From NCBI GenBank assembly GCA_041483195.1, contig JBGPFC010000010.1, positions 1-64,000 on the forward strand: a stretch of DNA of 64,000 bases, written 5' to 3'. Positions within the stretch are counted from its first letter, which is position 1. Each line of letters opens with the position of its first letter. The position numbers and the translations under genes were made by a program. Below, one piece after another: positions 19,396-59,911 of the stretch. A model generated the notes under the pieces. It was not told where the DNA came from. It did not search any database and worked only from the letters and a program-made list of their open reading frames with translations. Origin of the DNA: Candidatus Eiseniibacteriota bacterium. Its GTDB lineage: Bacteria; Eisenbacteria; RBG-16-71-46.

Positions 19396-19472
19396 TGGTG
19401 CGCCCTGGAGGATTTGAACCCCCAGCCTTCTGGTCCGTAGCCAGACGCTCTATCCAATTGAGCTAAGGGCGC
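19396..19472 (-). tRNA. tRNA-Arg(ACG)
   Basis: GCGCCCTTAGCTCAATTGGATAGAGCGTCTGGCT-ACG-GACCAGAAGGCTGGGGGTTCAAATCCTCCAGGGCGCACCA folds as a cloverleaf with CCA. Confidence 0.97.
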
Positions 19473-19494
19473 ACACATCGACCGCATGAACATC

Positions 19495-19586
19495 TGGCGG
19501 AGAGGAGAGGATTCGAACCTCCGGATCAGTTTTACCCGATCAACCGCTTAGCAGGCGGCTGCCTTCAGCCACTCGGCCACCTCTCC
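19495..19586 (-). tRNA. tRNA-Ser(GCT)
   Basis: GGAGAGG...GCCGCCT-GCT-AAGCGGT, long variable arm, GTTCGAATC, GCCA end. Confidence 0.97.
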
Positions 19587-19596
19587 AAGCTACATC

Positions 19597-19682
19597 TGGC
19601 GGAGGGAGTAGGATTCGAACCCACGGAGCTTTCGCTCTCCGGTTTTCAAGACCGGCGCCTTAAACCACTCGGCCATCCCTCC
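19597..19682 (-). tRNA. tRNA-Ser(TGA)
   Basis: GGAGGGA...CCGGTCT-TGA-AAACCGG, variable arm, GTTCGAATC, GCCA end. Confidence 0.97.
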
Positions 19683-53785: not shown

Positions 53786-54967
53786 TCAGCCCCCGCTCCC
53801 CTCGAGCGCCTGCTCGAGGTCCGCGCGAAGATCCGCGACGTCTTCGATCCCCACCGAGAGCCGCAGCAGCCCATCGGCGAATCCCATCGCGAGCCGCGTC
53901 TCGCGGGGGACCGAGGCGTGGGTCATGGACGCCGGGTGGCATACCAGGCTCTCGACCCCGCCCAGGCTCTCGGCGCGGGTGAACAGCCGGAACCGATCGA
54001 AGACTCGCCGGCCGCTCTCCAGCGATCCGTCGCCGGGGATGAACGAGATCATGCCCCCGAATCCCGAAGCCTGGCGGCGCGCGAGCGCGTGCTGCGGATG
54101 ACTCTCGAGTCCGGGATAGAACACCGCGCTGACGCGCGGATGTGCCTCGAGCACCGCCGCGAGCGAGCGCGCATTCTCATCGTGCCGCTGCATGCGCACC
54201 GCGAGCGTCTTCGTGCCCCGCAGCGCGAGCCAGCAGTCCATCGGCCCCGGCACCGCGCCCGCCGCGTTCTGGAGAAACCGGATCTGCTCGGCGAGCGGCT
54301 CGTCGCTGGTGATCAGCGCCCCGCCCACCATGTCGCTGTGCCCGTTCAGGTACTTGGTCACCGAGTGGACCACGACATCGGCGCCGGCCGCCAGCGGGCG
54401 CTGGAAGAACGGGGTCATGAACGTGTTGTCCACCACGACCCGGATGCCGCGCCGGTGGGCGCGCGCGCTCACGTCGGCGATGTCGGTGATCTGCATCATC
54501 GGGTTGGTGGGCGTCTCGATGAACACCAGCCGGGTCTCGGGCCGGATGGCCGCCTCGACCCCCGCGGCATCCGCGGCGGGTACGAACGTGAAACCGAGCC
54601 CCAGCCGCTTGAACACGCGTTCGAACAGCCGATAGGTGCCACCGTACAGATTGTCGCCGGCGACCACGTGATCGCCCGCCGACAGCGTATGCATCAGCGT
54701 CGTGGTCGCCGCCAGCCCCGACGCGAAGCAGAAGCCGTGGCGCCCGCCCTCGAGCGCGGCCAGGTTGTTCTCGAGCGCGGAGCGCGTGGCGTTGTGGGTG
54801 CGCGCGTATTCGAAGCCCTTGTTGCGGCCGAGCGCCTCCTGCGCGTAAGTCGAGGTCTGATAGATCGGCACCGTGACCGCGCCGGTGGTGGGATCGGGCT
54901 CCTGTCCCGCGTGGATCGCCAGCGTGCTGAAGCCCGACCGCGGCCTCACCGCCCCTTCTCCGCCCAT
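53786..54967 (-). CDS. Cystathionine gamma-lyase/synthase
   Basis: PIYQTSTY, EYART.N.TR, ETPTNP, DNTF, HSVTKYLNGHSD, AESLGGVESL; TGATG coupling to CBS. Confidence 0.93.
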   Translation of the reverse strand: MGGEGAVRPRSGFSTLAIHAGQEPDPTTGAVTVPIYQTSTYAQEALGRNKGFEYARTHNATRSALENNLAALEGGRHGFCFASGLAATTTLMHTLSAGDHVVAGDNLYGGTYRLFERVFKRLGLGFTFVPAADAAGVEAAIRPETRLVFIETPTNPMMQITDIADVSARAHRRGIRVVVDNTFMTPFFQRPLAAGADVVVHSVTKYLNGHSDMVGGALITSDEPLAEQIRFLQNAAGAVPGPMDCWLALRGTKTLAVRMQRHDENARSLAAVLEAHPRVSAVFYPGLESHPQHALARRQASGFGGMISFIPGDGSLESGRRVFDRFRLFTRAESLGGVESLVCHPASMTHASVPRETRLAMGFADGLLRLSVGIEDVADLRADLEQALEGSGG

Positions 54968-56358
54968 CACACCCCTCCCGCGATGAAGTGGAGCATGTCG
55001 AACCGCGTCAGGATGCCGGTCACCGCGCCGTCCTCGCTCACCAGCACCGCCGGGTTGCGGCTCGCGAGCAGGCGCGTGACCTGCGCGACCGGCTCGTCGC
55101 TCTTCACGACCGGCAGCGGCTCGCCCATCAGGGACTCGACCGGCTGATCGAGCGTCGAGGAATCCGCGAGCACGCGCTTCAGGATCTCGCTGTCGACGAG
55201 CGTGCCCACCACCTCGGCTCCGCGCAACACCGGAATCTGCGAGATGTCGTGCTGCTGGACCAGCGCGAGCGCCCGGCGGAGCGGCTCGCCGACCTGCACC
55301 GTGAGCAGCCGCGGCGACTGCCGGCCCTTGATGCCGAGCACGTCGGCGACCCGCGTCGCGGCGGGATCGAGCAGGTGATTGTCGCGCATCCACTCGTCGC
55401 TGTGCACCTTCGTGAGGTAGCGCTCGCCGGTGTCGGGGAGCAGCACCACCACCAGCGCGTCGGCCGTCAGATCCTTCGCGACCTGGAGCGCGACCCACAC
55501 CGCCATCCCCGACGATCCGCCGACGAAGATCGCCTCCTCACGCGCGAGACGGCGCGCCATGTTGAGCCCGTCGCGGTCGTTGCACGCGACGACCTGGTCG
55601 ATCACCGAGAAGTCGGTGGCGGTCGGGATGAAGTCCTCGCCGACGCCCTCGATCTTGTAGGGATGCGCCTCCGCCATCTCGTGCGTCTCGTGATAGTGCT
55701 TGAGGATCGACCCCACCGGGTCGGCCCCGATCACGCGCACGCGGGGGTTCTTCTCCTTGAGATAGCGCCCGGTCCCGGTGATGGTGCCCCCGGTCCCCAT
55801 GCCGCACACGAAGTGCGTGATCTTCCCAGCGGTCTGCTCCCACAGCTCGGGGCCGGTGCTGGCGTAATGGGCCTGCGGATTCGCGGGGTTGTGATACTGG
55901 TCGGTCAGAAACGCGCCCGGGCGCTCTGCGGCGATGCGCTTCGCGACCGAGTAGTACGACTGAGGGGAGTCGGGCGGGACCGCGGTCGGCGAGAGCATCA
56001 CCTCCGCGCCGAATGCCTTGAGCAGATTGACCTTCTCGCTCGACACCTTGTCCGGCATGCAGAAGACGGCGCGGTAGCCCTTGATCACCGCCACCATCGC
56101 GAGTCCGAGCCCGGTGTTTCCCGATGTGCACTCGACGATGGTTCCCCCGGGCTTGAGCTTGCCCGCGCGCTCCGCGCTCTCCACCATCGCGAGCCCGATG
56201 CGATCCTTGACGCTTCCGCCGGGATTGAAGAACTCGAGCTTCGCGAGCACCGGGGCCGCGCTCTGCCGCGCGACGCCACCGAGCCGCACCAGCGGCGTGC
56301 GCCCGACGGTCTCGAGGATGTTCTCGTGGTAGCGCACACCGTCCAGGACGTGACTCAC
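54967..56358 (-). CDS. cbs: Cystathionine beta-synthase (PLP domain plus CBS pair)
   Basis: NPGGSVKDR, TSGNTG, GTGGT, YKIEGVG and C-terminal CBS domains. Confidence 0.92.
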   Translation of the reverse strand: MSHVLDGVRYHENILETVGRTPLVRLGGVARQSAAPVLAKLEFFNPGGSVKDRIGLAMVESAERAGKLKPGGTIVECTSGNTGLGLAMVAVIKGYRAVFCMPDKVSSEKVNLLKAFGAEVMLSPTAVPPDSPQSYYSVAKRIAAERPGAFLTDQYHNPANPQAHYASTGPELWEQTAGKITHFVCGMGTGGTITGTGRYLKEKNPRVRVIGADPVGSILKHYHETHEMAEAHPYKIEGVGEDFIPTATDFSVIDQVVACNDRDGLNMARRLAREEAIFVGGSSGMAVWVALQVAKDLTADALVVVLLPDTGERYLTKVHSDEWMRDNHLLDPAATRVADVLGIKGRQSPRLLTVQVGEPLRRALALVQQHDISQIPVLRGAEVVGTLVDSEILKRVLADSSTLDQPVESLMGEPLPVVKSDEPVAQVTRLLASRNPAVLVSEDGAVTGILTRFDMLHFIAGGV

Positions 56359-56565: not shown

Positions 56566-57918
56566 CTAGTGGATGATCTTCGACCGCTTCTGGGCGAAGT
56601 TCCAGCTCGGATCGTTGTCGCCCTGGTGGCAGGTGACGCACACCTGCTCTGTGACGGCGCGATGCTCCTTCGTGTAGGCGTCGTGCTGGGTTCCCATGCC
56701 GTGGCAACTTTCGCACTGGACGTTGACGAGCGCCGGCGATTCGCTGGCATTCACGAATCCGCCTGGCTTCTTGTAGCCCACCACGTGGCACGAGACGCAA
56801 TCGGACGACGTGTCCTTGTGGTTGTCGATCAGCGTCTGCCAGGCACGCGCGTGGGGCGTCGTCTTCCATTGCTCGGCCTGCTGGGCGTGGCAGCGAGTGC
56901 AGACCTCGGCGCCCACGAACTTGTCGGGGCTGTTCTCGAGATCCTTCTGGGCCTGCTGCACGACCTGTTCCTTCTCGCGCTTGCGCAGTTTCTCGTTCCA
57001 ACTGTCGTCGAACAGCTTGACCATCTGCGCGATCTCGGGCTTCTCGCCGACCTCGGGCCCGAGGATGAAGGTCTCGTTGTCGCCGGTCGTCACGTGGCGC
57101 TTCGCGTCGAGCGCGAGCACGGTGCGCCCGATGTACTGGCCCTGCTCGCCGCCGTAGCAAGCGACCGTGGTCTTGATGAGACGGCCCTTCTGGAGCATCG
57201 GCGCGTTGCGTCCGACGATCAGCGCGTCGATGCCGTCCACCGCGGTCACCAGGTCTTCGCTCTCGACCTTGCCGAGCTGCGAGAGCAGCACGATGACCGT
57301 CGCGCCCTTCTTGCGCATCTCGGCCACGGCCGCCTTGGCCGCCGCGACCGGATCCTGGACGACGAGCGAGTCGCGGGCCGGGCCGAGGTCCACTTTGTCG
57401 CTGATGACTCCCATGATGCCGAGCGTGGCCGTTCCCACCTTCTTGACGACGTAGGGCTGGAGCACGGGCTTCTTCGTCTTCTTGTCCATCAGGTTGACGC
57501 ACACGACCGGGAGATGGTCGGCCGCGGCGCGCGACTTGATGAACGCGAGCCCGTAGCGCAGATCACGATCGCCCACGCCCACCGCGTCGGTGCCGAGCAC
57601 CTTCATCGCGTCCATCAGGAACCAGGCGACGTCCTCGTACTGATCCTGCTCCGGGAAGTAGCCGCCGTTGTCGACGAGCACCACCTGTCCGTACTGCGCC
57701 TTGATGCTGTCCGTGAAGCTGGCCCGCCGGGCCAGTCCGCCCTTGGGGGTGTGTCAGCCACAGGGACCGGTCTTGCCCTTCACGTCGGTGGTCGAAAGGA
57801 TGATGACCTTGTCGGGCTCGAGCGTGGAGTGACTGGCCGTCGTGGCGCCCGAGAGCATGACCCACAACAGGACGGCCATCACGGCGGACGCGAGCAGGCG
57901 GGAAGCCAGCGACTTCAT
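56566..57918 (-). CDS. Putative selenoprotein: UshA-like (C-G-U) domain fused to a tetraheme cytochrome c, 450 aa with U55
   Basis: ATG at 57918 gives a signal peptide and 'IILSTTDVKGKTGPCG-TGA-HTPKGGLARR', in frame with track ORF 56566-57684. C-terminus has CTRCH, CVSCH, CESCH and CVTCH. Confidence 0.88.
57719..57756 (-). promoter_or_regulatory. In-frame UGA plus bacterial SECIS-like hairpin
   Basis: TGA at 57756-57754, an 18-nt spacer, then CTGGCCC-GGC-GGGCCAG (57735-57719) with a G-led apical loop. Confidence 0.75.
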
Positions 57919-57982: not shown

Positions 57983-58012
57983 ATTCTACGGGTCTGGCTC
58001 CGGCAACGTCAA
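57983..58012 (-). promoter_or_regulatory. Sigma70 promoter for the selenoprotein gene
   Basis: TTGACG-N18-TAGAAT about 65 nt upstream of the ATG at 57918. Confidence 0.65.
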
Positions 58013-58034: not shown

Positions 58035-58328
58035 CTAAACCTCGACCCGATAGCGCCGCAACAGATCCTTCGATGGCACCCGCTTGCGGGAGCCGCCATG
58101 GACGACCAGGACGCGGAACCCGTACCGCTCGAGTCCGAAGTGGCGCTCGATGATCCGGACCAGCCCATCGATCGTCGCGTCGCCGCGGATGGTTCGGCCG
58201 CGGCGGCCCTGCCCGTGCGCCCGGGCCAGCCCCGCCTCGTAGCCTTCCTCGTATGAGCGCTTGAGCAACCGTTGCAGAGTCCGCCAGTGGGTGAGGCGCA
58301 GCTTCTTCAGGACCTGTGTCTGGGTCAT
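58035..58328 (-). CDS. Hypothetical basic protein (97 aa)
   Basis: GGAGG RBS before ATG; plausible codon use; no family recognised. Confidence 0.7.
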   Translation of the reverse strand: MTQTQVLKKLRLTHWRTLQRLLKRSYEEGYEAGLARAHGQGRRGRTIRGDATIDGLVRIIERHFGLERYGFRVLVVHGGSRKRVPSKDLLRRYRVEV

Positions 58329-58628: not shown

Positions 58629-59486
58629 ATGGCGATTCCGGAGCATTCCGATCGCGGTCCGAGCGGCGATGAAACCCTGCGATTCGCACTTCTGATACTC
58701 GTGATCGGGATCGGTCTCGGGATCGCGTACAACGCGCTCGGGCTCGCGAGCCGGCCCGCCCGGGGCCTGCCGTGGGTCGGGCACGCCACGAGCGTGCAGA
58801 GCCTCGAATCGCTGGAGTCGCTCCCGGATGCGACGCCCGCAGCGGCCTCGACCCGCGCACCGACCACGACGCCCGCGCCGAGCGGCACGGGGGCACAAGC
58901 TGCGAAGACGCCTCCGTCGCACCCGGATTCGACAGCGCGGGCGGCGACTCCCGCGCGCGGCACCAGGTCCCCGTCCAAGACGCCCGCCGCTCCCCCCCGG
59001 CACGCCGCGGTCACCACTCCCGCCCCGATCACGGCGCCGCCCCCCGCCGCGACGCCGCCCGCCGCGATGCCGCCCGCCGCGCCGGCCACGGCGCCCCGCA
59101 CCGCCGACCTGCCGGTGATTCCGGACGTGAGCGGTCCGCTCAAGCTGGAGATCGCGACGCTCCGGCGGCTCTACGACGCCGACGCGGCGCTCATCATCGA
59201 CGCCCGGGATTCCGAAGACTACAAAGACGGCCACATCGCGGGCGCCATCGGCCTCTCTTACAACGACGCCCTCGCCGAACCCGACAGGGTGAAGCGGCTC
59301 GATTCGGGCGGGCGCCCGTTCGTGCTCTATTGCAGCGGCGGGGATTGCGAGCTGTCCATGGATCTCGCGAAGGTGCTGGTCGCCGCCGGCAAGCGGAAGG
59401 TTCTGGTGTACGAGGGTGGCTTCCCCGAGTGGCAGGCGGCGGGCAATCCGGTCGCCAAGGGCCCGGACCCCGGAGCGCGTCCATGA
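58629..59486 (+). CDS. Membrane-anchored rhodanese-like protein with Pro/Ala/Thr linker
   Basis: N-terminal TM helix; 'IIDAR...Y..GHIAGA', 'LYCSGGDCELS', 'YEGGFPEW'. Confidence 0.9.
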   Translation: MAIPEHSDRGPSGDETLRFALLILVIGIGLGIAYNALGLASRPARGLPWVGHATSVQSLESLESLPDATPAAASTRAPTTTPAPSGTGAQAAKTPPSHPDSTARAATPARGTRSPSKTPAAPPRHAAVTTPAPITAPPPAATPPAAMPPAAPATAPRTADLPVIPDVSGPLKLEIATLRRLYDADAALIIDARDSEDYKDGHIAGAIGLSYNDALAEPDRVKRLDSGGRPFVLYCSGGDCELSMDLAKVLVAAGKRKVLVYEGGFPEWQAAGNPVAKGPDPGARP

Positions 59487-59911
59487 GCGCCGGCGGAAAT
59501 TTCCTCACCTCGCGCGCGCTCGTCGGCCTGTGCCGAATCGTGGTCGGACTCGTCATGATCGCGGCGGCGCTCGGCAAGATCGGCGACCCCGCGGCGTTCG
59601 CATCGCAGATTCATCACTACCGTCTCATCCCGGCGGCCCCCGAGAACCTGCTCGCCATCACGCTTCCCTGGATCGAGCTGGTCGCGGGGCTCGCTCTGGT
59701 GCTCGGCGTGCGGGCGCGATCGGGAGCATGGCTGGTGGCGGCGATGATGGTGGTCTTCACGCTCGCCGTGACCTCCGCGCTCGCGCGCAACCTGAACATC
59801 GACTGCGGTTGCTTCGGCACCGCCGACGCCTCGCGGATCGGATGGACGAAGCTGCTCGAGAACATCGCCCTGACCGGCGCTGCGGTGGTCGCCTCGCTGC
59901 GACCGAGATGA
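59483..59911 (+). CDS. MauE/DoxX family redox-associated membrane protein
   Basis: ATGA overlap; 'LPWIELVAG', 'IDCGCFG'. Confidence 0.9.
   Translation: MSAGGNFLTSRALVGLCRIVVGLVMIAAALGKIGDPAAFASQIHHYRLIPAAPENLLAITLPWIELVAGLALVLGVRARSGAWLVAAMMVVFTLAVTSALARNLNIDCGCFGTADASRIGWTKLLENIALTGAAVVASLRPR

Follow-up and report, generated by a model that had tools for sequence, protein, structure and literature searches.

Does the TGA at 57756-57754 on the minus strand of this sequence end one gene and leave a second one behind it, or does it encode selenocysteine (Sec) within a single longer gene? The question arises in a 64,000-nt stretch of the genome of a Candidatus Eiseniibacteriota bacterium (assembly GCA_041483195.1, contig JBGPFC010000010.1, positions 1 to 64,000; hereafter the window), where the minus-strand frame 57918..56566 is open save for this one triplet. 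Standard calling of open reading frames (ORFs) splits the region into a piece of 54 aa (57754..57918, ATG start) and a piece of 372 aa (56566..57684, GTG start), both on the minus strand, which share one frame and are divided by the TGA alone. The original prediction had seen in these two pieces a hidden selenoprotein with an UshA-like domain fused to a tetraheme cytochrome c. On the evidence below, we hold with high confidence that 57918..56566 is a single gene for an exported selenoprotein of 450 residues, a member of the UshA-like CxU ("PCGU") family, and that its TGA almost certainly encodes Sec.

Read through, the gene (56566..57918, minus strand) has 450 codons plus a stop, running from an ATG at 57918 to a TAG at 56568-56566. 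Its GC content of 0.91 at third codon positions and 0.41 at second positions fits that of real genes in this 70% GC window, and orthologs align with it across residues 1-450, with one TGA. The N-terminus of the 450-residue product is basic and then hydrophobic, MKSLASRLLASAVMAVLLWVMLSGATTAS, and residues 1-29 (57832..57918, minus), with K2, R7, a hydrophobic core and ATTAS, read as a putative secretory (Sec-type) signal peptide; the N-termini of homologs are equally hydrophobic. The recoded position falls in LSTTDVKGKTGPCG-U-HTPKGGLARR, where residues 52-55 form the motif P-C53-G-U55, and the product has CxxCH motifs at residues 340-344, 374-378, 402-406 and 427-431. Upstream of the gene lies a sigma-70-like promoter match, TTGACG-N18-TAGAAT (57983..58012, minus), which agrees with the consensus at 10 of 12 positions; one such site was found where shuffles gave 0.1, and it is a consensus match only. 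The original prediction had drawn attention to this promoter-like site (58012..57983), to the in-frame TGA and the ATG 57918 and N-terminal leader gained by extending through it, and to the four CxxCH motifs of a 372-aa ORF that has no signal peptide of its own; all of these are found in the sequence as it described them.

The most conventional reading would take the TGA as a true stop, in which case the locus would be a pseudogene, or else a 54-residue leader followed by a separate 372-residue tetraheme cytochrome starting at GTG 57684. Standard ORF calling yields just this split, and many database homologs are about 370-412 residues long and cover 82-85% of the query. However, the 372-residue product would then carry four CxxCH motifs without a signal peptide, and the 54 codons before the TGA are conserved as well as those after it. 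As for the database entries of about 370-412 residues, their lengths match the expectation for truncation at the TGA, and many entries of the family appear to have been truncated alike, the underlying DNA having been checked for a TGA in the genomes searched here only.

The codon itself can be followed through relatives. Our set of related genomes numbers 41, including the window's own and one unpublished genome (G026) that is counted in tallies only, and 39 of the 41 have a match at E <=1e-30. Exactly one in-frame TGA is present in 44 of the 65 matches listed, and none in the other 21; in 36 of the 41 genomes at least one copy has exactly one TGA, even at protein identities as low as about 30%. 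In every relative whose site was read, the TGA stands at the same codon. It follows C-G at 20 of 20 loci in one series (L030-L049), as PCG* in 19 and as QCG* in L031, and more distant copies read CG*HSGQKGGVARRA, with the TGA likewise behind C-G. Position 55 is Cys in each of the 20 full-length database homologs aligned, between invariant residues on either side. Finally, among 72 loci from other lineages (whose record labels include Acidobacteriota, Nitrospirota, Gamma- and Deltaproteobacteria, Myxococcales and Latescibacterota), CG-TGA is found in 39 and CG-Cys in 33; a regular-expression search accounts for 31 TGA and 32 Cys forms in this count, and the remaining nine loci were read by eye. 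A TGA conserved at one codon over this range, and exchanged in homologs for Cys, is not what a true stop would lead one to expect.

Decoding of UGA-55 by the host's own SelA/SelB/SelD/tRNA-Sec system is strongly supported as well. The host genome, in 93 contigs and 96.8% complete, has matches to selB (352.7 bits), selA (552 bits), selD (348.6 bits) and tRNA-Sec (69.9 bits), all above their family cut-offs. A sequencing error at the TGA can be excluded, because contigs from four other sediment-metagenome runs, not flagged as the source of this assembly, span 57754-57756 with 0 differences and no variant listed. No RNA data set was listed as holding this stretch. The original prediction had proposed a search of the genome for selA, selB, selC and selD and an inspection of homologs for C or U at position 55, and had named a sequencing error as a finding that would undo it: all four genes are present, the homologs have either Cys or TGA, and the independent assemblies reproduce the codon. 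Two further features of the machinery were observed in passing. The selD match (G000:C9:87663-88583; loci L010 and L014) carries one in-frame TGA, and the SelD of this genome is probably itself a selenoprotein; the tRNA-Sec gene (G000:C9:87191-87284) lies about 400 bases from selD on the same strand.

What, then, would direct the insertion of Sec at this codon? A hairpin resembling a selenocysteine insertion sequence (SECIS) occupies 57717..57738 on the minus strand. Its core, CUGGCCC-GGC-GGGCCAG, begins 18 nt past the UGA, as the original prediction had it (57735..57719), and forms a 7-bp stem (57735-57729 with 57725-57719) closed by a GGC loop (57728-57726); two extra pairs (57738-57737 with 57718-57717) lie beyond a bulged A at 57736. 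The 18-nt spacing and the G in the apical loop agree with the rule that the bSECISearch model applies to bacterial SECIS elements. Two null results weigh against this assignment. Folded singly, the 71 nt after the UGA do not surpass shuffled sequences (z = +0.80; 158 of 200 shuffles fold at least as well), a result that also favors a true stop, and Rfam at gathering thresholds finds no SECIS family in the window. The Rfam matches in the window consist of three tRNAs only (RF00005, 57-69 bits), clustered at 19399-19682 on the minus strand. Since the single-sequence fold is unremarkable, the significance of the hairpin has to come from comparison with relatives only.

That comparison was made in two ways. 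An alignment of 31 Sec-form sequences shows the 7-bp stem to be paired in 99.5% of cells, and 2 of its pairs show compensatory changes, in 10 cells, at synonymous sites (for example, CUG...CAG to CUC...GAG). The covariation score was reached by 0 of 500 shuffles, pairing falls to 18-56% when the partner is shifted by 1-3 columns, and RNAalifold returns the same 7-bp stem with two more pairs past a one-base bulge. The second comparison, which took in every distinct family sequence at hand, controls for the possibility that the encoded peptide constrains the pairing. Of 75 Sec forms, 58 have all seven in-register pairs, a figure lowered by a few misplaced anchors, as does 1 of 43 Cys forms; when a perfect 7-bp stem is accepted at any place in the first 60 nt, the counts are 70 of 75 and 10 of 43. 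Where Cys forms code for the same L/F/V-ARRA-S/T peptide, they mostly choose other Arg and Ala codons, and the pairs kept in such forms number 6 (L069), 5 (L093) and 7 (one L087 copy) of 7. Because the stem pairs are kept in Sec forms and mostly lost in Cys forms, the hairpin tracks the UGA and not the peptide. A role for this predicted element, which overlaps the codons for L-A-R-R-A-S, in directing Sec decoding of UGA-55 is thus strongly supported by the aligned sequences. With a hairpin that covaries and tracks the UGA, and with Cys in the place of the TGA in homologs, a true stop at 57756-57754 is extremely improbable, and the hidden selenoprotein of the original prediction stands.

To which family does this selenoprotein belong? 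The top match is NCBIfam NF041198, "UshA_like_PCGU, UshA-like (seleno)protein" (E 3.5e-81, 273.3 bits), which in the genome search matches in two parts: model positions 7-269, the N-domain, with the TGA inside, and positions 344-518, the cytochrome part. Two sets of scores count against a clear-cut assignment, in that the match falls 1.7 bits under the curated cut-off of 275 and five Eisenbacteria-type or similar relatives reach 260-269 bits. Elsewhere in the family, the scores are 216 bits for a gammaproteobacterial Cys form and 355-370 bits for three Sec forms of deltaproteobacterial or acidobacterial origin; in all, the cut-off is passed by 3 of the 10 family proteins scored, the window protein included. 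As judged from these scores, falling below the cut-off is a property of the Eisenbacteria-type clade. The clade reads VDNGG, GDRD, SQLG and GRN where delta- and acidobacterial members read DSGD, GELD, THQG and GGH, and it has lost more of the phosphoesterase motifs than those members. A second model, NF049981 ("UshA-like (seleno)protein family 2"), also describes a Sec-containing relative of the UshA N-domain, but the window protein scores only 22.1 bits against its cut-off of 140, and NF049981 differs further in its CxxU motif and in its 262-position model without a heme domain.

The architecture, too, is familiar from the family. The original prediction implied that the fusion of the two halves was new, and this did not hold up: since NF041198 covers both halves, an UshA-like domain joined to a tetraheme domain is the normal arrangement, and four CxxCH motifs stand behind the CG[U/C] motif in 71 of 72 loci from many phyla. 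The halves themselves were correctly identified, the first by NF041198, a sequence match to 2z1a and Foldseek matches to 5'-nucleotidases, and the second by four CxxCH motifs, PF13435 and PDB 1bvb. In the literature, the GOS selenoproteome paper lists "COG0737, UshA-like", with the motif CxU, among its major families and, in the part available, sets it apart from the usual Cys-based redox-motif families (PMC2398784, 2008). The family recurs as "UshA-like protein", COG0737, motif CxU, in a table of a 2022 review (PMC9312934), and as "UshA-like protein", NF041198, motif CxU, in a table of a 2026 review, which adds NF049981 as a second family (PMC13188914). As far as the accessible parts of these sources go, the COG0737 family has UshA homology, the CxU motif and Cys homologs in common with the window protein, and those parts of PMC2398784, PMC9312934 and PMC13188914 state neither a function nor a heme domain for it. 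A literature search combining selenocysteine, multiheme and nucleotidase found no paper. The window gene is, then, a borderline-scoring, Eisenbacteria-type member of a catalogued selenoprotein family, and its recognition is an annotation fix and not a discovery: for this genome, two called ORFs become one exported 450-residue selenoprotein. The family to which the correction applies is a large one, with relatives encoded in at least 559 stretches of species-representative genomes; it spans many phyla, and the Sec and Cys forms are about evenly represented among the 72 loci. The question of the substrate concerns the family at large and does not originate with this window.

Does the UshA-like half still work as an esterase? 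The degenerate 5'-nucleotidase/UshA-type N-domain extends over residues ~37-290 (57049..57810, minus), and that it has the 5'-nucleotidase metallophosphoesterase fold with its metal-binding residues replaced is strongly supported. Against solved structures, the family profile matches the 5'-nucleotidase 2z1a best (E 4.3e-22). An AlphaFold2 model with a mean predicted local distance difference test (pLDDT) score of 83 is confident over residues ~37-330, with the N-domain above 90, and its top Foldseek matches are 5'-nucleotidases (E ~2e-21 over ~310 columns). The Pfam models Metallophos (PF00149) and 5_nucleotid_C (PF02872) are unmatched in the window protein at E up to 0.1. At the first motif, where metallophosphoesterases carry D-x-H, the window protein has D45-V-K47, read from the sequence rather than from a printed alignment. 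The other positions come from the alignment with 2z1a: AGD is replaced by NGG, with Gly86 in place of the metal-bridging Asp; GNHE by GDRD; SHLG by SQLG, with Q214 at the His position; and GGHSH by VGRNV in the family profile (VGRNA in the window protein). The window protein thus departs from the dimetal motifs DxH, GD, GNHE, H and GHxH, and because the dimetal ligands are replaced in the 2z1a alignment, a metal-dependent esterase role is very unlikely. What the domain does share with UshA and the 5'-nucleotidases (T. thermophilus 2z1a, E. coli 1ush, human CD73) is the fold and a GG-x-ARR segment common to the true 5'-nucleotidases, beside which the CG[U/C] loop sits, directly after the first strand. 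Unlike those enzymes, the window protein has no C-terminal nucleotide-binding domain and carries the CxU motif and a tetraheme domain instead.

One could still suppose that the protein is a hydrolase, be it a 5'-nucleotidase, a cyclic phosphodiesterase or a SoxB-type thiosulfohydrolase, to which the hemes are accessory. Fold and sequence are, after all, related to 5'-nucleotidases, there are weak matches to SoxB (TIGR04486, 55.4 bits; PDB 2wdc, E 2.8e-7), and GD, H and GH motifs survive in some distant members of the family. SoxB belongs to the same 5'-nucleotidase-type superfamily and is a periplasmic protein of sulfur metabolism. It has neither a CxU motif nor hemes, however, and the TIGR04486 score is far under the cut-off of 550, while the dimanganese site is absent from the window protein. 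Moreover, opposite the metal ligands of 2z1a the protein has G, D-R-D, Q and R-N, Metallophos is unmatched, the place of PF02872 is taken by the cytochrome, and the feature that is invariant in the family is CG[U/C] and not a metal site. We consider a hydrolase highly unlikely for the window protein. Loss of the metal ligands varies by clade, since three loci from Deltaproteobacteria and Acidobacteriota (L122, L119 and L162) retain DSGD, THQG and GGH at phosphoesterase positions that the Eisenbacteria-type clade has replaced; going by these motifs, some family members might still bind metal.

The second half of the protein is a cytochrome c554-like tetraheme domain at residues ~332-450 (56569..56925, minus), with its four CxxCH motifs at 56901-56887, 56799-56785, 56715-56701 and 56640-56626. 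It is the sole part of the protein that Pfam detects (PF13435, Cytochrome_C554; 63.2 bits versus a cut-off of 20.8), and the family profile matches PDB cytochrome c554 1bvb at E 7.9e-16. The likeness to Nitrosomonas cytochrome c554 (PF13435; 1bvb) lies in the four CxxCH motifs and their c554-like arrangement; the difference is that c554 is a free electron carrier, and the domain here is the C-terminal module of a larger selenoprotein. The four CxxCH motifs, H356 and H450 are invariant and H412 nearly so, which leaves three candidate distal ligands for four hemes. In cytochrome c554, one heme (heme 2) is five-coordinate, and by analogy three conserved extra His residues for four hemes would resemble that protein. 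In several genomes, shorter Cys copies match only residues ~1-315 and are without the cytochrome domain (for example, L071:4724-5551 and L075:8609-9436).

The heme left without a conserved His partner invites a reading in which Sec55 or Cys53 would serve as its axial ligand, or would stand beside its open site, with sulfur-sulfur bond chemistry taking place at the heme iron. The count of only three conserved further His residues (H356, H450, H412) and the match to c554 fit such a scheme, and Cys-ligated hemes are found in TsdA and SoxAX, on which the analogy draws. On the other hand, the model has low confidence in both the CGU loop and the heme domain and gives this scheme no structural support, and a Met or Lys ligand is possible. 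We regard direct ligation, or reaction at an open heme, as unlikely.

In its place we tentatively favor a periplasmic redox enzyme, not an esterase, in which the Cys53/Sec55 couple would exchange electrons with the hemes, a reading that is built from sequence and is plausible short of being probable. The original prediction had likewise proposed that a Sec/Cys redox site is coupled to the four hemes. Cys53 and Sec55 would occupy the loop that follows the first strand, over a former dimetal pocket that now has Lys, Arg and Gln, and would cycle between the selenol/thiol and selenenylsulfide states, with two electrons passing between them and the four hemes. The substrate might be a thiol, a disulfide or an anionic sulfur or selenium compound, so that periplasmic thiol and sulfur-compound chemistry would be linked to the pool of c-type cytochromes. 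A more specific form of this idea, on which we are doubtful, would make the whole family a periplasmic selenol/thiol:cytochrome c oxidoreductase, with a Cys-x-Sec loop on a metal-free 5'-nucleotidase remnant that would carry electrons between a built-in chain of four hemes and thioredoxin-fold partners or small sulfur or selenium compounds. Candidate partners for such an oxidoreductase would be the DsbA-like, TlpA-like and DsbD/CcdA proteins found beside some members, and one heme might have no His as distal ligand and might lie next to the Sec. A selenol on a disabled phosphoesterase scaffold joined to four hemes would in any case be an unusual catalytic design. If the oxidoreductase reading is true, the protein would link the thiol network of the periplasm to the pool of respiratory cytochromes by a soluble route, and to our knowledge no such thiol-cytochrome route has been described for the 5'-nucleotidase fold.

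The genes beside family members bear on this redox proposal. Paralogs lie beside DsbD/CcdA at 3 of 7 loci examined (L083, L085 and L087), and at the first two a TlpA-like redoxin is present too: at L083, a full DsbD and a TlpA-like redoxin lie immediately upstream of the family member and share its strand, L085 has CcdA and a redoxin directly upstream, and L087 has three tandem copies with CcdA. A Pfam scan at 30 loci from other phyla found DsbA-like immediate neighbors at L126, L132 and L147 and an AhpC-like one at L131. The Dsb, TlpA and CcdA neighbors are hints of thiol-disulfide partners. Several observations pull in the other direction. The remaining 109 of the 113 neighbors scanned at those 30 loci are unrelated or match no family, and are mostly housekeeping genes. 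CcdA and TlpA-like neighbors could equally serve cytochrome c maturation, that is, heme attachment. In the AlphaFold2 model, pLDDT is below 50 for residues 54-58 of the CGU loop and averages 55-80 by block over the heme domain; given this low confidence, the geometry between Sec55 and the hemes cannot be taken from the model. In addition, a tblastn search for CcdA, DsbD or TlpA beside 80 other-lineage loci turned up only L142 and L164.

The window's own locus offers a different set of neighbors. In minus-strand order, these are a 97-residue ORF, the selenoprotein gene, cystathionine beta-synthase (CBS), cystathionine gamma-synthase/lyase (CGL), DUF4097 and bactofilin. The conserved 97-residue ORF (58035..58328, minus), directly upstream of the selenoprotein gene, has a weak winged-helix match (PF13551, E 0.011) and is present at 15 of 20 loci from genomes of the same taxonomic family. 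CBS (54967..56358, minus) is above the TIGR01137 cut-off, the CGL-family gene lies at 53786..54928 (minus), and the bactofilin-domain gene, on the minus strand as well, is a weak Pfam match (26.0 bits versus a cut-off of 27.9). Could CBS and CGL be functional partners? The selenoprotein gene and CBS are adjacent at 14 of the 20 loci from same-family genomes and again at the order and class level. However, the whole block LptD-selenoprotein-CBS-CGL-DUF4097-bactofilin is collinear across the class, and beyond Eisenbacteria-labelled records a CBS match occurs at the locus only in L097 and L117, in the latter not adjacent. We therefore rejected the two enzymes as partners in favor of inherited synteny. 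The copy at L097, in a record labelled Candidatus Saccharimonadaceae, is 60% identical and has the same selenoprotein-CBS-CGL order as the Eisenbacteria loci; this contig may be mis-binned.

A second pair of candidates lies on the plus strand, on the upstream side of the selenoprotein gene and divergent from it: a rhodanese with a membrane anchor and a long linker rich in Pro, Ala and Thr (58629..59486) and, directly behind it, a MauE/DoxX membrane protein (59489..59911). They too were rejected as conserved partners, being adjacent only in the window's own genus (L050 and L051) and at L096 and missing at the other 18 of 20 loci, which represent 17 same-family genomes and a second copy in one of them. 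At L096 (L096:7597-8831), the rhodanese-MauE/DoxX pair is downstream, between the selenoprotein gene and CBS.

Two other arrangements were observed among the relatives. Tandem paralogs with a Sec form directly beside a Cys form occur at G008:C29:28696-31597, G023:C379:329-4415 and L087:7370-12881. In a Chromatiales record (L146:8315-10648), a fusion of a NIR_SIR sulfite/nitrite reductase with TusA lies about 1 kb downstream of a Cys form, on the opposite strand.

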